NCBI GenBank assembly: GCA_965222225.1
Contig: CBDCTK010000002.1
Coordinates: 1,792,001-1,856,000, forward strand
Reading direction: 5' to 3'
Length of the DNA: 64,000 nucleotides
Source of the DNA: Candidatus Poribacteria bacterium
GTDB lineage: Bacteria; Poribacteria; WGA-4E; JAJDTR01
Every line of letters starts with the position of its first letter. The stretch's first letter is position 1. Shown here piece after piece: positions 4,262-54,771 of the stretch. The notes beneath the pieces were generated by a model. The model worked only from the letters and a program-made list of their open reading frames with translations. It was not told the origin of the DNA and did no database searches. The position numbers and the translations under genes were made by a program.

Positions 4262-6043
4262 TCAGAGAGGCCATACGAGAGGTGTGATGAGTATTGCTGT
4301 ACCGCCGACCAGCACATCTAACGGAAGTCCGATTCGCAGATAGTCACTGAAGCGATAGCCGCCGGGGCCATAAACCATCAAGTTGGTCTGATACCCTAGC
4401 GGTGTGGCAAAACTTGCCGACGCTGCGACCATTGTCACGATAACAAACGGCATGAAATTCACGCCAAGATTATCAGCTGTCGCGATTGCAATCGGGAAAA
4501 CGAGCACAGCCGCTGCAACGTTGGTTAGAGTTTCGGTGAACAACAAAGTGATGACATATACCACAGCCAACACAAGCAGCGGCTTTTGGCCCGCCATCGC
4601 GATGAGAGATTGCGCAATCGCGCCGGCTATTCCAGAGTTTTGCATAGCGTGGCCAATTCCTATCGATGCCGCAATGACTAGCAAGACCTGCAAATTGATG
4701 CTGCGCCTTGCAGTTGCCACCGAGCAGCAACCAGTCAAGAGCATGAGCCCAGCCGCTAGGAGTGCGGCATTCAGCATGAGTTCGGGTTGGATGACCACAA
4801 CTGCAACCATGCCTATCAGAAGCCCCGATGCCATCAAGGCATGGCTATGGCGCCGCGGGTTAGAATCTTCCACTTGGCTCACTAAGAAGAAATCGCGTGA
4901 ATTTCGCTGCTGCGTCCCAAACGATGGGTGTGTTTCCAACAGTAAGGTGTCGCCTGCCCTCAATACGATGTCTCCAATTTTCCCACGGATGCGTTCGCCA
5001 TTTCGAGCGACGGCAATAACCACGGCATTGTAAGTTGAACGAAATTGCCCCTCGCGAATTGTTTGGCTAACGAGCGGACAAGTGTTCGAGACGACGGCTT
5101 CAATAAGGCATCGCTCGGACCTTGGCGTGTCAAGTTTGAAAATCTGATCTGTAGCGGGGGTTAAGCCGGGCATTTTTTGCAAACTGACAACCGATTCGAC
5201 AATCCCAACAAAGATGAGGCGGTCTTTCGCCCGAAGCCGTTCCTGCGGTGAAACAGCAACCATCACTTGACCGTCACGGTCAATTTCCATCAAGTACAGT
5301 CCTTCGAGATGCCGCAATCCCGCTTGTTCAATTGTTTGGCCGACAAGGGAACTACCATCTTCCACAAGCATCTCAACCGTATACTCTCGCGGATCGGCTG
5401 TTCGGCGAAGCACCGGGCGCCTTTCGGGCAATAACCACCGGCTAAATATCACCGTGAATATTGTTCCTATCAACGCGCAGGGTAACCCGACCTTCGTTAT
5501 GTCGAACATCCCGAGGCTCTGTTCTCCCCACTCTACCAGCAAGCCATTGACCACCAAATTGGTGCTTGTGCCAATCAGCGTGCACATACCTCCAAGAATC
5601 GCCGCGTAGCTAAGCGGTATCAGCAGTTTGGACACCGATAAGCGATTCTGTTTCGCCCATTCATCAACCGCTGGTAGGAGTGTCGCAACAACGGGAGTGT
5701 TGTTCAGAAATGCACTGGTGGTTGCGACAGGTAACACGATGCGCAGAAGTGCCGCCGAGAGCGATTTGGGACGTCCTAACAAGTGTCGAACAATCAGATT
5801 AATGACACCCGTCTCACGTAATGCGGCGCTGACGACGAAAAGCACCCCGACCGTAATCATTCCCGGGTTGGCAAACCCTGAAAAGGCTTCGGCAGGCGTG
5901 AGAATCCTTGTTGTCAACAATAGGATTAAGCCGCCAAGTAGGATTGCATCCGGACTGATGCGCGTGAAAATTAACAAATTGAGCACTAATGCAACGACAG
6001 CCAGCGTTATCCAAGCGTCCCAGCCCAATGTTTCCCAGCCCAT
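4262..6043 (-). CDS. SLC13/CitMHS-type permease with TrkA-C (RCK_C) domains
   Basis: SAFLNNTPVV, LIGTSTNL and ATPLGYQTNLMV motifs; start at MGWETL, upstream ORF extension looks non-coding. Confidence 0.9.
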   Translation of the reverse strand: MGWETLGWDAWITLAVVALVLNLLIFTRISPDAILLGGLILLLTTRILTPAEAFSGFANPGMITVGVLFVVSAALRETGVINLIVRHLLGRPKSLSAALLRIVLPVATTSAFLNNTPVVATLLPAVDEWAKQNRLSVSKLLIPLSYAAILGGMCTLIGTSTNLVVNGLLVEWGEQSLGMFDITKVGLPCALIGTIFTVIFSRWLLPERRPVLRRTADPREYTVEMLVEDGSSLVGQTIEQAGLRHLEGLYLMEIDRDGQVMVAVSPQERLRAKDRLIFVGIVESVVSLQKMPGLTPATDQIFKLDTPRSERCLIEAVVSNTCPLVSQTIREGQFRSTYNAVVIAVARNGERIRGKIGDIVLRAGDTLLLETHPSFGTQQRNSRDFFLVSQVEDSNPRRHSHALMASGLLIGMVAVVVIQPELMLNAALLAAGLMLLTGCCSVATARRSINLQVLLVIAASIGIGHAMQNSGIAGAIAQSLIAMAGQKPLLVLAVVYVITLLFTETLTNVAAAVLVFPIAIATADNLGVNFMPFVIVTMVAASASFATPLGYQTNLMVYGPGGYRFSDYLRIGLPLDVLVGGTAILITPLVWPL

Positions 6044-47925: not shown

Positions 47926-48969
47926 CTATTTGTTGTGCCGTCTACTCGCTAGGAATGAATCAAGTTGCTCAACGGTGTCAAAGATTCTTTCGCACAAGTT
48001 CTCAAAGAATGGACTGCGGGCATGGGAGTATACGGCGTAGACCGGCTTGTTGTAACGAGACGCATAGTTCATCTCGCTTAACACGCCCGGAGAGAGTTTA
48101 TCGGTTGGATAAAGCACAACGACGAAATCGCTCTGATGAATGAATTGAAAATCCCTTGAGATGGTGCGTGTCTTTATCTGCTCGCTAAAACTCGCGTCAA
48201 GATTGCTAATGGTGGTGATTCTGTCTGAAGTTACTAGCTCCGGTTTCACGCTCAGTTCGGCTTCTGCGTCGTGAATTAACTCCATATCTTTTATATCTAG
48301 CGGATCGAACACGATAAAATGCTTGCGCATCTTCGATCCAAACGCATGAATCTTTTTGAGGTGGTCGGTGCTCTCCCGTAGCAGAGTGATTGGATAACTG
48401 AGATACAATTTCTGTTTGTCGGAAAATAAGAGATCGTAAAAGTTCTCAAGATCGTGCCGTCGTGCCACTGTATAGTGAGGTTTGCTGTTGAGGATCGCCA
48501 TCTGCTTAGTTAGGAACTCCTCCTCATCTAGCCAGACGTTAATCTCTTCGCGACGCATACCCGTCCACTGAGGATTCGGCGTCATACGATCTGTGATATC
48601 TGCAAGGTCATCAACCACATTCACAAACACATCTGCCGGAAACTCCCGAATGTCCCGAAAAGATATCCCCTCAATCAATCTACCACGCCAGCGAAAGCAC
48701 GAATGAAGTCCGATAAACGCATGCTCGTATTCGGAGGCGCGATTGGCAATTTCGTGGAACGCAGACCGACGCGCTAAGGAGAGCACGGCAGGATCGGAAT
48801 CGAGTACTTTTTCCGTGAAGCGCACTCCGGATTCGGCAGCGGCACGGTGCATGAAATCACCTACGTTAAAAAACCCGATCCGCACTTTTTTTTCGCGACA
48901 GAGCGCTTCAAAATCCGCCATCAACTCCTTTCTGCCGGAGCAACTGATTCCTGTGCAGATGATATTCAT
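47926..48969 (-). CDS. Archaeal-type adenylate-kinase-like P-loop domain fused to a nucleoside 2-deoxyribosyltransferase-like domain
   Basis: TGISCSGRK N-terminus; YLSYP..FDPL..RDFQFIHQSD..SPGVLSEM.YA...KPV C-terminus. Confidence 0.6.
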   Translation of the reverse strand: MNIICTGISCSGRKELMADFEALCREKKVRIGFFNVGDFMHRAAAESGVRFTEKVLDSDPAVLSLARRSAFHEIANRASEYEHAFIGLHSCFRWRGRLIEGISFRDIREFPADVFVNVVDDLADITDRMTPNPQWTGMRREEINVWLDEEEFLTKQMAILNSKPHYTVARRHDLENFYDLLFSDKQKLYLSYPITLLRESTDHLKKIHAFGSKMRKHFIVFDPLDIKDMELIHDAEAELSVKPELVTSDRITTISNLDASFSEQIKTRTISRDFQFIHQSDFVVVLYPTDKLSPGVLSEMNYASRYNKPVYAVYSHARSPFFENLCERIFDTVEQLDSFLASRRHNK

Positions 48970-49232: not shown

Positions 49233-50363
49233 TCACGCCCCATTGGCTTCGCTGGCTTGAGGCCTGAGCAGAATTAGCGCGACTAATGCGGCAACCGAAG
49301 AGATGGATCCTGCGACGACAAATGCCCCTGAAAGCCCAAAGATATCCGCAACGGCGCCGGATGTCATGGGGCCAAGAAACATCCCGATGGCATACGTGGC
49401 TTGAAAGGCCCCCATCGCCGTTGCACGGTCCTGATCGGGTATCTGCCGAATGCTCAAGCCCATCAGCAAAGGGTACGTCATGCCGCGTCCAAACCCACTG
49501 ATACCTTGGGTGATTGCTAGGAGTGGCAGGTTTGTGACAATGGGAACGACAAACGCCATCCCCGCCATAATGAGAATGCCCACGAAAAGCGCACGATTTT
49601 CGCCTAAACGATCGGCAACGCGATGATTGACCAGTGACGCTAGAGTGTAGGGCAGCAGGGCAACCACACCAATGACGCCGAGTGCCGATTTACTCGCACC
49701 CAATCCATCTGCATACAACGGGACAAAGCCAAATGTCGTTGCCCAGATGACATATTGATTCAGAGCGGAGATTAGCGCTGTAGTGATTACTGTCCGGTGA
49801 ATCATTACCGAGCGAATCTGTCGCACGGTAAGAGATTTTCTAATTGCTCGCGGTTCCCTAATCGGCGCGGTTGAAATAATACCGAAAACCGCCAAAATAG
49901 CACCGACATAGAATGTAGATTCCATTCACCAGATTTCGGCAATCTGTCCTCCTAGACCGATAAAGACCGTTAACGATATGCCGTTGATTGCGCTGACGAC
50001 ACCCATTGCCTTGGGCGTTTCATCCGGCGGAAAGTAACTTGCATACAATACCGTGAATCCAACCCAAGTCGACGCACTGATACCGAACACACCGCGGGCC
50101 AGGACTAGATATGCCGGGTTAGGCGCAAGAGCAAGCCCCAGGCACCCAAGCAAGTTGAAGAAGTGACCTGCGTAAAGGAAAGGCAGGCGCCTCCCCAGAC
50201 GATCCGACCAAATGCCGACCGGAATTCGCAGGAGCATTTGAACGAAACCGTACGCCCCAACAATGACACCCACGGTCGTGAATGAAGCGCCTAGCGATGC
50301 GGCGTAAACAGACAATATAGGTGAGTAGACGTATAGCGCAGCCCAATACAGAAACATCGCCAC
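49233..50363 (-). pseudogene. MFS transporter split by an in-frame TGA (49926-49928)
   Basis: GIWSDRLGRR and ADRLGE MFS motifs; halves in the same frame GGQIAEIW*MESTF. Confidence 0.75.
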
Positions 50364-50653
50364 ATAGAACGCCCAAATTGACAGCTTCCCAGGCTGGTGT
50401 GAAAGCGATCCGTTACCGGTTTGGGGTGTCTCCTTGATTGAAAATCACCTCGGGTTCCAGGAAAAATTATGAAATGGCCTGTGTCATTCTAACCGAAGGC
50501 GACCAGGCTGTCAACGTTTCAATACGACACGAACCGCGCAACCCCGGCATTTCCCAAACCTGCCCGTTTTTTCTGACCACAATGTAATGATCGCATATTG
50601 AGGTCTCTGTAGTTTCTGTAGAGTGGGCACTGTCCACCTCTGAAACAAATTAT

Positions 50654-53600
50654 CTACGATTTGTCAACTTCATGTGTGCATACATCCTCGTGGCTATCAA
50701 TCGCTGGCAAACCGACGAACATGCGGCTATCAATATCTGCAAGTGGTTCCACTGACCCCGTTACCGCCGCACGCGCAAAGACAATCCCGGGGCGATTGGC
50801 TTGCATTGCCCGACCGAGCACCGAAGCCTGATCGCCGATAGGGTTATTGCGTTTCACGCTGCGTCCAAGTTCTGCAATTTCACGTTGAACTCTGACTAGG
50901 GCTTCCCAGTGGCGGTGTGCAACTGCACGAAGATCTTCCGGTCTCAGTCCCTCCCGATAACTGCGCCGGACATTGGGCGGAGTCGGAAGACCGTATTTCG
51001 TACTGTTCCATCGCACAACCATCTGGGAGAATGATTCGAGTCTGCCCTGTGCAAGGCTTTTCACTGCGAGCAATTGTGGACCCACGTCATTGTCGCTGAA
51101 GTCCTTTCGAGTTGCGAGTTGCTCGTTCATTTCCTCGGTGTATGCCTCCCACGCCACTTCATCGTGATCCGGAGGCAAAGGCTCTCTTTCCAAGCTTTCA
51201 CCAATGAATGGACTAATTGACGCGCCTGATTCCTTCGCTAGGTCAAAACCGCGCTTCATCAATTCCTGAATGGTACAGAGCGTTTTCGTGGCGCCGTCAC
51301 GTTCCAAGACAATCTGCAGTGCCCATCCGAGCGTATTTCGCGTAATAAATCCTTCAGGTGCGTCCACGTCAACGCCCGTTAGCCTTGAGATTTCCGCGCG
51401 TCCATCTGCGGTCAGGCTCAGATTTGCAAGCCCCCACATCGGATCCAGTGCCGGTATAAGGGCTTCAAGCAATCCAGGATCGCGATTAAGTCTTGGACGG
51501 AGTCCGCGTGTAGTCGAAAATATCGGAAGCACGGAGTCTAGCGCTCCCGGGTCGCGTTCAAGATGCGAAACGAGGGTAAGTTTTTCTCGCGCCTCGGTTT
51601 GTGCAGCCTCGGTAATTGGCAGAATTACTGCGGCTTGATCTCCGTCAAAATCCACATTCATAGGCCTACAGACAACGGGTGGGATATGGATGGCATTGTC
51701 CTGGCGCCGTACCGGTCGAAATGCGAGAAACTGGGTTGGTGTTATAGCGGGAGCGCGATACAGAATCACCCACGAGCGGTTCATGATGGTATCAAGTGCT
51801 TGTGATGCATCTTTGGTTCGTTTACTGACTTCCACAGAGTTTTGAATCTCTCGTGTCACTATTGGTCCGAAAAGCTTCCATGCCATCTCTTCAGGAATTC
51901 CAATTTGATCGTGCTGTAGGCGAATATCCGGGACAATCACCCCCCGTCCGCTAAAAACTGACCGCGTGTTGAAGGCGAGATGACGGTGGGTAACGAGCAC
52001 GTCAAAATATTCTCGAACGCAAGATTCTAGCTGATAAAGCGTCTGACGAATGAGACTCTCGGGCGCATTGTTAGCAAGCATTCGATTTGCTCGATCGTTG
52101 ACCGTAACAAGGTTCTCGTAAGCAGTGGAAATGTTGGTATTTACGATTCTCGTCTCGTCAATCCACCATGCATTGTTGTATTCGCGCGGACTTGATGCGG
52201 TTCCGAAAAAGTCGCCATCTTCAGGGACGCCCACCTCGTCGATTGTATGCTGGCGCAGCCAAGGATGAGGAATTGGACGAGCTAGTTTGAGCGATTCGCC
52301 ATCAGGCGGCTTGAGACGGAATTTCATCGTCGGATAGCTCCTAGTCCCATCTCCCGATCCTAATGGGTGCGAGCCCTCAAGTTCGGTGCGAATGCCAGCG
52401 AAGGCAAGACGCTTCATCAGATTGACAAACCGCGGGGCAAAGCCAGCATGTTGTTCAACTTCTCCACGGGCGACACGATCCGCGAGTGTATTTATATCTA
52501 CCCAGTCTGTAGAGCAAGTATGGTAACGTTCATAAAGATTGTTGAAAACAGCAAGATTGCGCAAGACACTATACTCGATGTTACCTAACCCCTGGCCGTA
52601 AGTCAGTCCCTCACGAGCGGGCCTAATTTTCTCCCGCGCAATGTGGCGTACACGCCCCCAATACACCCAACCAACCGTGCTAGGGCGCTCGAGTCTTTTC
52701 CCATTCTTACCGAGTGTGAGGTATTCCATGCCATTCTCGGGCAGTCTCGCACGTTTCAGACGCTTGCTTAACTCTTCAATGCTTGGGGCACCAAAGGAGG
52801 GTACGATTATTGGTTCTCCTTCAACTTTCGCGACGCGGCTCATGATTGCTTCCCTTAATTGTCCAACGTTCATCCGTGTCTGCACGCCAAACGAGTTGTA
52901 AACAATTTCAACCGGAGTTCCCTCAGTGAGATGTGGCATTTCATCGTCCGGCACAATGCGGGAAATGCAGCCTTTCGAGCCGTGACGGTTCGCAAATGCA
53001 TCGCCGGGTTCAACAGGATAGGGGTAACTGAAACGATTCGCACACGACTCGCTAATGACGATTGCATCCTCGAAAGTATCAACTCCCCACGGTACAAAAG
53101 CCGTCAGTACATTTCGTCCGCACCAAAATCTGTCGGCATCAAAACTATTCTCGGTCTGAACAAGTGCGGGTTCGGGGTCAGGCGGAACGTAGAATTGACG
53201 CTGCATGCCCAGCCCCATTTGCTGATGGTTTGGGTCGTTGTGCTCGATAAACGGCACAAGCGAAGCACTGAGTCCGAGTCCGGCTTCCGGCCGATTATCG
53301 ACGACGATTAGCTTGCCATCGCGAATCTCTGCTCCAACTGCGATGCTCAAAATCTTACCAACACTTGGTCCCTCAGGTGTTTCATATGGACACACGCGAC
53401 TAAAATAACTCGGATTCATGACACGATTTTGCCATTCAACACGGATGCGGCGAAGATTGGTTTGTCGATCAAGCCAGTTGAAACTCTGAAGGCGCCGGAT
53501 GGATGGTTGACTCGCGAAGAATTCGAGAACCCATGTGTGGAGCGAAAACCAAGATTTAACGAGCGAGGCATCCCATGAAAAATCGGGAGGAGTGCTTCCT

Positions 53601-53935
53601 AGGCGCTCCGCGATGAAATCGCACAGTTGCTCGCCGACACATTTTATCTCGGCGGCGGCGAGATCTTCATTTTGAGCGATTGGCAGGACGATTCGCTCCT
53701 TACCATCAATATTGAATACCCCGTCATCATCTGGCTGTGGAATGTCGGTATACGATTCGTCTAGGTTGCCCGAACCGAATCCAAATGCAATCTCAATGCG
53801 ACAAGTATACGTACTTGTTGATTCAACGTGATAGCCAGCCAGCGGCATACGCACCGCGAGAAGTTCTGGTAGCCGATTGTTGGTGAATCGGTTAAACGAT
53901 TCTTTGTGCCAAAAAGCGGTAATATTGCGGGACAT
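50654..53935 (-). CDS. Miniature fused beta-beta' RNA polymerase-like protein
   Basis: Collinear RpoB motifs (GVFNIDGKER, CPYETPEG, VPFIEHND..MQRQ, FEDAIVISE, RHGSKG, RMNVGQ, TVGWVY) then RpoC motifs (LARPIPHPW, clamp helices, SGRGVI, YRAP, NVDFDGD, SYREGL); AGGAGA RBS. Confidence 0.9.
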   Translation of the reverse strand: MSRNITAFWHKESFNRFTNNRLPELLAVRMPLAGYHVESTSTYTCRIEIAFGFGSGNLDESYTDIPQPDDDGVFNIDGKERIVLPIAQNEDLAAAEIKCVGEQLCDFIAERLGSTPPDFSWDASLVKSWFSLHTWVLEFFASQPSIRRLQSFNWLDRQTNLRRIRVEWQNRVMNPSYFSRVCPYETPEGPSVGKILSIAVGAEIRDGKLIVVDNRPEAGLGLSASLVPFIEHNDPNHQQMGLGMQRQFYVPPDPEPALVQTENSFDADRFWCGRNVLTAFVPWGVDTFEDAIVISESCANRFSYPYPVEPGDAFANRHGSKGCISRIVPDDEMPHLTEGTPVEIVYNSFGVQTRMNVGQLREAIMSRVAKVEGEPIIVPSFGAPSIEELSKRLKRARLPENGMEYLTLGKNGKRLERPSTVGWVYWGRVRHIAREKIRPAREGLTYGQGLGNIEYSVLRNLAVFNNLYERYHTCSTDWVDINTLADRVARGEVEQHAGFAPRFVNLMKRLAFAGIRTELEGSHPLGSGDGTRSYPTMKFRLKPPDGESLKLARPIPHPWLRQHTIDEVGVPEDGDFFGTASSPREYNNAWWIDETRIVNTNISTAYENLVTVNDRANRMLANNAPESLIRQTLYQLESCVREYFDVLVTHRHLAFNTRSVFSGRGVIVPDIRLQHDQIGIPEEMAWKLFGPIVTREIQNSVEVSKRTKDASQALDTIMNRSWVILYRAPAITPTQFLAFRPVRRQDNAIHIPPVVCRPMNVDFDGDQAAVILPITEAAQTEAREKLTLVSHLERDPGALDSVLPIFSTTRGLRPRLNRDPGLLEALIPALDPMWGLANLSLTADGRAEISRLTGVDVDAPEGFITRNTLGWALQIVLERDGATKTLCTIQELMKRGFDLAKESGASISPFIGESLEREPLPPDHDEVAWEAYTEEMNEQLATRKDFSDNDVGPQLLAVKSLAQGRLESFSQMVVRWNSTKYGLPTPPNVRRSYREGLRPEDLRAVAHRHWEALVRVQREIAELGRSVKRNNPIGDQASVLGRAMQANRPGIVFARAAVTGSVEPLADIDSRMFVGLPAIDSHEDVCTHEVDKS

Positions 53936-54019
53936 TCTTTTCTCCTATCAAGAATTCAGGATCCGACATGTAGAGATTCGTTTTAGGTTCTTAATACCAT
54001 AGCCGGTCCTGATTTGTCC

Positions 54020-54625
54020 TCACCATTCATGCCATTCAATGCCAAGTTCCTTCCATTCGCGTGCGAGACGTTTCAGTGTATAGTGCAAACGCGATTTGAC
54101 TGTGCCTATTGGGACACCGAGTTCATCAGCGACCTGCCGAATGTCCATTTCTGCACCGTAGACGAGGTGAAGAACCTCTCGCTTCTCATCGGGCAAGTCG
54201 TCTACAAGTTCCCATAGGAATTCGGACTGTTCGGCTTGTTCAAGCATCACTTGAGGGTCTGGCGATGCGCTGTCGATTAACCAGGTTGGCATCTGTGTAA
54301 GAGCGCCATCTTCGTCATCATAGGGCTCTTCGGGAACTTCAAGTGGCTGCTGTCTGCGTCGATGCACCGTTCGAAGGTGATTAAGGGCGAGATTGGTCGC
54401 AATGCGGTAAAGCCATGACTTCAATTCGCCGCGTCCATCCCACTGTGCCGCACATGTCCATACCCGAAGGAAAACCTCTTGGACCAAATCTTCAGTGGCA
54501 CCTTCGTCTCGGACAGTACGCAGGATGTGCTTGTAGAGGACGTGCCTGTAGCGCTCAAAAAGGATTTCAAACGCAATGGTATTTCGCCCGCGAATCTGCT
54601 CAATGAGTTCCCGATCAGATTGCAT
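54020..54625 (-). CDS. ECF sigma-70 factor upstream of the mini-RNAP gene
   Basis: EDLVQEVFLRVW, SWLYRIATN, GTVKSRLH. Confidence 0.93.
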   Translation of the reverse strand: MQSDRELIEQIRGRNTIAFEILFERYRHVLYKHILRTVRDEGATEDLVQEVFLRVWTCAAQWDGRGELKSWLYRIATNLALNHLRTVHRRRQQPLEVPEEPYDDEDGALTQMPTWLIDSASPDPQVMLEQAEQSEFLWELVDDLPDEKREVLHLVYGAEMDIRQVADELGVPIGTVKSRLHYTLKRLAREWKELGIEWHEW

Positions 54626-54658
54626 CGACAGAATCCTTTCGTCGGGTTTCCACTGTGG

Positions 54659-54686
54659 ATGACACCGCAGGATGGACGACGGTTCA
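54659..54686 (-). promoter_or_regulatory. Candidate ECF-type autoregulatory promoter
   Basis: TGAACC-N16-TGTCAT (AAC / GTC pattern) just upstream of the sigma ATG. Confidence 0.45.
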
Positions 54687-54771
54687 CTAGGGAATCAAAA
54701 ATCGGTTTTTCAGATGGGGAAAAAGGAAGGCTGGAACGAGAGGGGTTCAAATGCTAGTGGCAAGTTGTGCA

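Follow-up and report, generated by a model that had tools for sequence, protein, structure and literature searches.

A miniaturised, single-chain bacterial RNA polymerase homologue without a trigger loop is encoded beside a dedicated ECF-type sigma factor in Poribacteria and other phyla

Can a descendant of the bacterial RNA polymerase dispense with its trigger loop and, if so, what does it do? The question is raised by a gene on the reverse strand of a 64,000-nucleotide stretch of the genome of a Candidatus Poribacteria bacterium (assembly GCA_965222225.1, contig CBDCTK010000002.1, positions 1,792,001 to 1,856,000; this whole stretch is called the window, and positions are given in its numbering). 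The gene encodes a single-chain fusion of beta- and beta'-type subunits of 1093 residues, termed here the mini polymerase (P0001). Cellular RNA polymerases are considered to rely on the trigger loop as a central element of catalysis, fidelity, pausing and proofreading, and a clean excision of this element, as found here, is unusual. We show that the chain keeps ~450 residues from beta and ~490 from beta', fused in operon order, and that its gene comes second in a conserved two-gene cassette, the first gene being that of an orthologous extracytoplasmic function (ECF)-type sigma factor. We consider it probable that the protein is a secondarily miniaturised single-chain descendant of rpoB-rpoC, which would work without a trigger loop as a sigma-coupled accessory polymerase.

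The assignment to the bacterial enzyme follows from domain content. The Pfam domains Rpb2_3 (residues 159-204), Rpb2_6 (308-440) and Rpb1_2 (711-784) follow one another along the chain, each exceeding its gathering score, with 128 bits against a cut-off of 23.4 (E 6.5e-37) for the beta-type barrel domain RNA_pol_Rpb2_6 and 63.7 bits against 25.3 (E 3.2e-17) for the beta'-type barrel domain RNA_pol_Rpb1_2. Among solved structures, the top match is a bacterial beta subunit (E 2.8e-38), followed by beta' (E 2.6e-18, over residues 656-791 only). The protein nevertheless stays far below the cut-offs of the bacterial rpoB and rpoC equivalogs (TIGR02013, 162.5 vs 801 bits; TIGR02386, 82.1 vs 963.5 bits), and also below those of the full-length beta::beta' fusions NF007172 and NF011417 of NCBIfam (148-157 bits vs 4632-5372), which share its fusion order but span ~2840-2890 positions and keep all domains. 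The 5.70-Mb host genome (2 contigs) carries one canonical rpoB (1439 codons) and one canonical rpoC (1434 codons), with the mini polymerase as the sole extra copy; it is thus an additional enzyme, packing into one chain what the canonical beta and beta' spread over ~2870 residues in two.

To which parts of the canonical subunits does this shortened chain correspond? A family profile built from 76 members (alignment A1) aligns colinearly with residues 606-692, 763-817, 900-937 and 1189-1419 of the host's own RpoB, and weakly with 130-153, whereas RpoB residues 154-605, 693-762, 818-899 and 938-1188 are without counterpart in this alignment. For the host's own RpoC, the profile covers the stretch from ~240/296 to 830 (hhalign probability of 99.9% against residues 296-830), and nothing beyond 830 has a counterpart by profile alignment or superposition, except the C-terminal tail described below. 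We take the missing stretches to be the beta lobes, the flap and the rudder, and presumably the jaw likewise belongs to the excised parts. The AlphaFold2 model based on alignment A1 has a mean predicted local distance difference test score (pLDDT) of 87.2 and a predicted template modelling score of 0.87, with disordered segments at residues 524-529, 578-599, 796-817 and 1081-1093. Using VIA-align, the first 521-539 residues of this model superpose on beta chains from ~18 to 1341, i.e. to the C-terminus (Z ~30, 435-528 residues aligned), and the beta-like module thereby keeps the N-terminal segment, the fork, the hybrid-binding barrel and the C-terminal clamp part. For a second model restricted to residues 541-1093 (alignment A2, pLDDT 82.2), all 50 matches listed are beta' chains, aligned from model residues 1-6 to 539-553 (Z 27-28.6, 475-500 residues aligned, root-mean-square deviation 3-5 A), and on E. 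coli chains the superposition runs from ~24-102 through 1358-1376. As only 54 of the 553 residues, in three segments, are of low confidence, nearly every ordered residue of this half is matched in beta'. Overall, the alignments and the predicted models show that the fork and the two double-psi barrels are kept, as are the clamp coiled coil, the funnel and bridge helices and the terminal ~50 residues of beta', with colinear motifs, making the bacterial beta and beta' subunits the closest relatives in both sequence and fold (Z ~30 and ~28).

One local peculiarity of the model concerns the closest relatives of P0001. Their proteins carry an insertion of ~22 residues after the beta' barrel (residues 793-826 of P0001, ~51458..51559 on the reverse strand, including the low-confidence segment 796-817), which is absent from the other family members. 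It is flanked by an RDPGxL repeat (ERDPGALD and NRDPGLLE) and looks like a small tandem duplication.

The region that prompted this work lies at 50792..50965 on the reverse strand and translates to RSYREGLRPEDLRAVAHRHWEALVRVQREIAELGRSVKRNNPIGDQASVLGRAMQANR, residues 991-1048 of the mini polymerase. The first-pass annotation had read it as a degenerate bridge helix jumping, past a missing trigger loop, to the C-terminal segment of beta'. The register that it used is the one recovered by the profile, HMMER and hhalign alignments, in which SYREGL and the following helix align with residues 789-830 of the host's own beta' (HMMER E 1.3e-5 for this piece alone), and AlphaFold2 predicts a single continuous helix of 32 residues from 999 to 1030. 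This helix is followed in the model by an 8-residue linker, two helices (1039-1045 and 1049-1059), a strand (1062-1064) and a last helix (1068-1074). Four results concur that the trigger loop is absent. Its core patterns are found in none of the 120 family members listed, with the host's own RpoC positive at residue 962; Pfam Rpb1_5 is missing from P0001 and from all 120 of these homologues; 63 residues only remain downstream of the bridge helix; and the helices formed by these residues reach the end of beta' in the superposition. In the family, a median of 74 residues separates the bridge motif from the C-terminus (range 68-121, for the 91 of 120 homologues with a pattern match), compared with ~600 in the host's own RpoC. 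The loss of the trigger loop is therefore a trait of the whole family, and the direct junction of the bridge helix with the C-terminal segment of beta' is supported by the structural superposition.

A substitute for the missing trigger helix could be provided by the chain itself or by a partner. Since almost every ordered residue finds a counterpart in beta or beta' by superposition, the models indirectly indicate that no ordered extra element is left over to play this role. We dropped a likeness by eye between the helix 1039-1045 and the region around residue ~1175 of the host's own RpoC, which we take to be the second trigger-helix region: no tool supported it, and the superposition runs to the end of beta'. 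Alternatively, an active polymerase could receive the trigger-loop function in trans, from the linker between regions 2 and 4 of the sigma factor or from a host factor entering through the secondary channel. The near invariance of Trp115, Asp118 and Pro124 in this linker, the strict co-occurrence of sigma factor and enzyme, and the retention of the funnel helices all fit this scheme. We nevertheless regard it as improbable: no third gene is conserved nearby, and YonO, a polymerase of the Bacillus prophage SPbeta, reportedly elongates fast without such a partner (PMC5467207). The same paper reports that YonO has no trigger-loop homology, forms bonds as efficiently as a multisubunit enzyme, with lower accuracy, and does not cleave RNA (PMC5467207). 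The view, put forward in the first-pass annotation, that loss of the trigger loop must slow catalysis by orders of magnitude thus does not hold for this fold in general. Its proposals of slow chemistry, a trans-acting partner or a non-processive role may still apply to the mini polymerase.

We then considered whether the active site is kept. The metal-binding triad was reported to be intact, and NVDFDGD is indeed present in P0001; the second and third Asp are found in 76 of 76 aligned members and the first in 72. In the region of RHG.KG, Arg317 is invariant (76/76), His318 is present in 74 members, 71 keep the second Lys of the beta motif, and the tail contains two invariant residues, Arg1042 and Arg1071 (76/76 each). 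In the family consensus, the bridge helix opens with GARxGL and the beta barrel carries GDK. At position 1010 of the bridge helix, Arg is found in 64 of the 76 members, Trp in 11 and His in one, the Trp being present in all seven rows of the close clade of P0001, in three relatives of 56-62% identity and in one more protein; position 976 is also Trp in these rows and Arg in 37 of the 69 others. The GDK lysine (K1065), correctly noted at first as replaced by Ala in P0001 (GDAF, residues 311-314), is kept by 69 of 76 aligned members and varies only in the close clade; among the 14 closest proteins (P0001-P0014), this position is Ala in five, Lys and Met in three each, Ser in two and Thr in one. 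The description of the bridge helix as degenerate holds for its N-terminal motif, RHWEAL in place of GARxGL; the helix itself is intact and the change is confined to the Poribacteria subclade. The altered bridge motif and the Lys-to-Ala replacement are thus features of one lineage, superimposed on a family in which GARxGL and GDK are mostly retained.

Could these changes be signs of decay? A decaying remnant of a duplicated rpoBC would account for the large deletions relative to rpoB and rpoC and for the substitutions at conserved sites in the subclade, which forms a long branch of the family tree. This explanation is hardly credible, however, and is already contradicted by an intact frame of 1093 codons, by an architecture that recurs in more than 1000 protein clusters with a tree ordered largely by phylum, and by the ratio of non-synonymous to synonymous substitution rates (dN/dS), which is 0.15 overall, 0.14 for the bridge helix and 0.08 for the tail (21 pairs of 7 genes). 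Few parts of P0001 are as constrained as its bridge helix and its tail, and the substitution rates indicate that the subclade is under purifying selection rather than decaying. Note that the surroundings of the nucleotide site are remodelled in the subclade, with Arg replaced by Trp and a varying GDK lysine, so the enzyme may be slower or have an altered substrate preference, yet still be selected.

The family extends well beyond Poribacteria. A search of 5.8 billion proteins, with 8000 candidates scored, gave at least 1040 homologues at E <= 0.001, with lengths of ~1000-1100 residues, the best 120 of which are 727-1106 residues long and share the same Pfam set; those among them that are named bear only 'hypothetical' or domain-derived names. 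Sampling one genome per species gave 147 stretches encoding a relative, from which 80 loci were kept, distributed over Poribacteria, Latescibacterota, Hydrogenedentota, Chloroflexota, Planctomycetota, Armatimonadota and one Gemmatimonas bin. Ktedonobacteria and Caldilineaceae bins are among the carriers of relatives. The nearest relatives of P0001 are from Poribacteria, where 12 of the 41 genomes sampled encode a mini polymerase, and the family tree largely follows phyla. In Chloroflexota, Poribacteria, Planctomycetota and other phyla, inheritance of the cassette appears to have been long-standing and largely vertical. An origin from a mobile element or a defence system was considered and rejected: PADLOC gave no match, PHROGs gave generic polymerase or sigma matches only, and none of the 36 matches in 50,697 phage records (tblastn), which were of the canonical rpoB/rpoC type only, and no plasmid record covers at least 80% of P0001. 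The neighbouring genes are not phage-like either.

Two side observations concern other forms of the canonical subunits. The protein Atlas holds further fused clusters with Rpb2_6 and Rpb1_2, of 1221-1787 residues and some with Rpb1_5, which may be intermediate or independent beta::beta' fusions keeping the trigger-loop region. In one Poribacteria family (f3), the rpoC frames are of ~1870-1917 codons in many genomes and of ~2250-2300 in some, compared to ~1430 in the genus of the window; these long frames point to large lineage-specific insertions or fusions in canonical beta'.

The most informative context of the mini polymerase, missed by the first-pass annotation, is its dedicated sigma gene and promoter. 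The gene immediately upstream encodes a protein with the domains Sigma70_r2, Sigma70_r4 and Sigma70_ECF (TIGR02937, 108 bits vs a cut-off of 42.9), consisting of regions 2 and 4 only. An orthologue is found upstream on the same strand in 75 of the 80 loci, mostly abutting the polymerase gene; four of the five remaining loci have almost no upstream DNA, and the fifth (L046) has only a weak match on the opposite strand. In Poribacteria, a sigma orthologue of 58-86% identity is present in exactly 12 of 12 genomes with a mini polymerase and in none of the 29 without, where the best sigma match does not exceed 36% identity. Across phyla, these sigma factors are 43-87% identical. Around the pair, no further neighbour is conserved, the recurrent open reading frames (ORFs) being shadows inside both genes or lineage-specific. 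In one close relative (L007; G010:C1 ~1747000-1752800), the two genes are ~3 kb apart with an insertion between them.

Upstream of the sigma gene, whose ATG is at 54625 in the window, the motif TGAAC-N16-GTGTC is found in 48 of 52 loci (N15 in three cases), usually in the form TGAAC-N15-GGTGTC with AGTrGA ~9 bases further on. The cassette is in this respect organised like an ECF sigma/anti-sigma operon, with an ECF-type sigma gene, a conserved -35/-10 promoter and a co-conserved partner downstream. It differs in that the partner is a homologue of the polymerase core: the downstream gene is the beta::beta' fusion, and no anti-sigma gene is conserved nearby.

We infer that the mini polymerase has polymerase activity and binds its sigma factor. 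The sigma factor would first drive the cassette from the conserved promoter using the host core enzyme, and would then dock on the clamp coiled coil of the mini polymerase to form a small second holoenzyme. The helical hairpin formed by residues 602-621 and 626-647 provides such a coiled coil, which we take to be the main docking site for sigma region 2. The mini holoenzyme would make RNA by two-metal chemistry without a trigger loop and, as for YonO, lower fidelity, no intrinsic cleavage and no trigger-loop-dependent pausing would be expected. A prediction of the complex between the sigma factor and the beta' half gave scores of 0.31, 0.19 and 0.18, for a mark of 0.32, and is counted neither for nor against binding. 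A stronger proposal, plausible though more tentative, is that the pair forms a self-contained orthogonal transcription system with its own type of promoter, the smallest sigma-dependent RNA polymerase known, in which a chain of ~1000 residues and a sigma factor of 200 residues elongate without trigger loop, flap, lobes or a conserved neighbouring gene for alpha or omega.

Several observations weigh against a working sigma-coupled polymerase. Expression has weak support: four RNA-library runs, from two studies, yielded contigs that cover portions of the gene, e.g. X5 records 27-31 over 50735-54330, but such libraries may include DNA and contig depth cannot rank genes; stretches of the gene left uncovered in some runs carry no weight either way. 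In the active site, the first metal-binding Asp is replaced by Asn in 4 of 76 members (two of the seven close-clade rows and two of the 69 others), and several otherwise conserved residues are replaced in the Poribacteria subclade. At the C-terminus, the similarity of FARAAVTGSVEPL..MFVG to beta', from which the jump was originally deduced, is not significant by sequence; searching the last 50 or 96 columns of the family alignment against the host's own RpoC and 12 related beta' with HMMER and hhalign gave nothing significant past the bridge helix (best E 0.16-2). For promoter reading, the distance from the FED..ISES motif to GDAF is 12 residues in P0001 vs ~250 in the host's own RpoB (938-1188), a stretch that we take to be the flap and thus the presumed docking site for sigma region 4; no beta flap with its tip helix is found by the family profile in P0001. 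How a flap-less enzyme would read a promoter with fixed -35/-10 spacing is unclear, and this promoter may be read by the host core only. Lastly, no target regulon is visible beyond the cassette. A position weight matrix built from 36 non-redundant sites, including the window's own, with true sites at 23.2 or above, gives 34.7 at the cassette, compared with no more than 14.8 elsewhere in the 5.7-Mb genome. In four other carrier genomes, only the site of the cassette scores 33.5 or above among matches to the exact core, the rest being at most 19.5, and a fifth, whose own cassette carries a variant -10, was unmatched; note that the scan of these five genomes demanded the exact core TGAAC-N15-GGTGTC, which diverged targets would escape. 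The cassette is thus the only recognisable target of its sigma factor.

These observations bring in the main rival explanation, a non-polymerising, polymerase-shaped regulator that would hold the sigma factor or promoter DNA. It would occupy the usual position of the anti-sigma gene and close a feedback loop, directly downstream of the ECF sigma gene in a cassette that is apparently self-regulating, without a second promoter of the same type in the genome and without another anti-sigma candidate conserved nearby. The unconstrained GDK lysine and the Trp in place of the bridge-helix Arg in the subclade, and the Asn of the four members mentioned above, also speak for such a protein. The position in the operon suits this explanation, but the conserved active site does not: at least seven phyla share the second and third Asp, RHG.KG and the fork motif, which is hard to square with a mere binder of ~1000 residues, the bridge helix and the tail belong to the regions under the strongest constraint, and a loop without output offers no obvious benefit. 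We therefore judge it unlikely, and retain the accessory polymerase as the better account.

A polymerase with another job is a further alternative. The elements that peel off the RNA and close the exit channel being lost, the enzyme could synthesise short RNAs or primers, or take RNA or single-stranded DNA as its template. In support of this, no counterpart is found for the part of beta that separates FED from GDK or for the part of beta' that follows the clamp coiled coil, which we take to be the flap and the rudder. Single-chain two-barrel enzymes of the QDE-1 type act on RNA and single-stranded DNA (PMC9508822). We find this very improbable, as by far the closest relatives are the DNA-dependent bacterial beta and beta' and a sigma partner of the promoter type suggests that promoters in double-stranded DNA are used.

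Single-chain two-barrel polymerases as such are already known, and comparison with them clarifies what is particular to this family. YonO is likewise a single chain with two barrels and no homology to the trigger loop, but it is described as very distant from the cellular enzyme, phage-borne and of unknown promoter factors (PMC5467207), which sets it apart from the mini polymerase, clearly derived from beta and beta', chromosomal and paired with a sigma factor. An architectural parallel is found in Orf6 of the yeast plasmid pGKL2, a 982-residue fusion of the second-largest and largest subunits with about half of each deleted, and in which the trigger, switch 1, switch 5, rudder and lid are reported as undetected (PMC2919709); there, two C-terminal regions of beta' reside in a separate subunit of 132 residues, Orf7 (PMC6211774). 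This half-size polymerase is eukaryotic, plasmid-borne, highly diverged and without sigma partner, whereas the mini polymerase has the C-terminal segment in its own chain. QDE-1, gp66 of crAss-like phage, and gp64 and gp96 of P23-45 share the single chain, the two barrels and the bridge helix; in the mini polymerase, the bridge helix runs straight into the C-terminal segment of beta'. No curated NCBIfam, PADLOC or specific PHROG family spans the mini polymerase, and the main text of the ECF reclassification paper has no mention of a polymerase-like neighbour (PMC7826278). A description of the family was not found in the literature searched, outside of which lie many subscription papers and supplements; within this scope, we found no earlier account of a chromosomal, vertically inherited family derived from beta and beta' with its own sigma factor and promoter.

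Table 1. Positions in the window of the mini polymerase cassette and of its main elements
Feature	Position	Strand	Description and basis
Conserved ECF-type promoter	54645..54692	-	TGAAC at 54686..54682; GGTGTC at 54666..54661; AGTGGAAAC at 54654..54646
ECF-type sigma factor gene	54020..54625	-	201 amino acids; Pfam Sigma70_r2 and Sigma70_r4; orthologue in 75/80 loci
Mini RNA polymerase gene (P0001)	50654..53935	-	1093-amino-acid single-chain beta::beta' fusion; ORF and translation, Pfam, AlphaFold2, dN/dS 0.15
Beta-like module, residues 1-540	52316..53935	-	Family profile vs own RpoB; VIA-align
Beta barrel motif GDAFANRHGSKG	52970..53005	-	GDK at this site in the family and own RpoB; Ala in P0001
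Beta'-like module, residues 541-1093	50657..52315	-	hhalign vs own RpoC 296-830; VIA-align
Helical hairpin, residues 602-647	51995..52132	-	Clamp coiled coil by alignment; helices 602-621 and 626-647; own RpoC ~296-340
NVDFDGD metal-binding motif, beta' barrel, residues 760-766	51638..51658	-	Pfam and alignment
Bridge helix, residues 999-1030	50846..50941	-	RHWEAL at the N-terminal motif vs GARxGL in the family; model and alignment
Linker and C-terminal tail, residues 1031-1080	50696..50845	-	Superposes on the extreme C-terminus of beta'; expected site of the trigger loop and all beyond

The DNA downstream of the cassette (Table 1) shows a few features of its own. A strong sigma-70-like promoter, TTGACA-17-TAGAAT, lies at 50514..50486 on the reverse strand, ahead of the next gene downstream. 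This gene (49233..50363, reverse strand), which from its sequence we take to be of the major-facilitator transporter type, is split into ORFs of 145 and 230 residues by an in-frame TGA at 49928..49926. Contigs of the RNA-library runs X5 and X18 read G as the first base of this codon at 49928, giving GGA; the stop is thus either specific to this genome or an assembly error. Further downstream, an ORF of 347 residues (47926..48969, reverse strand), with matches below the cut-offs to AAA_17 kinase-like and nucleoside 2-deoxyribosyltransferase-like domains, adjoins genes for a RimK-type ATP-grasp protein and a GT4 glycosyltransferase, an unusual combination.

What does this family mean for the biology of RNA polymerases? 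Here, an easily alignable descendant of the bacterial enzyme has had its trigger loop excised and is kept by selection in several phyla, where a sigma factor and a defined promoter accompany it. If active, the mini polymerase would be a natural test of which parts are required for sigma-dependent initiation and elongation, and would offer to synthetic biology a transcription system that is compact, needs two proteins and has a known promoter. The Poribacteria subclade, with its bridge-helix Arg changed to Trp and its freely varying lysine, provides a natural series of active-site variants. An active enzyme would also give a view of the biology of a second polymerase in bacteria, which are usually credited with one.

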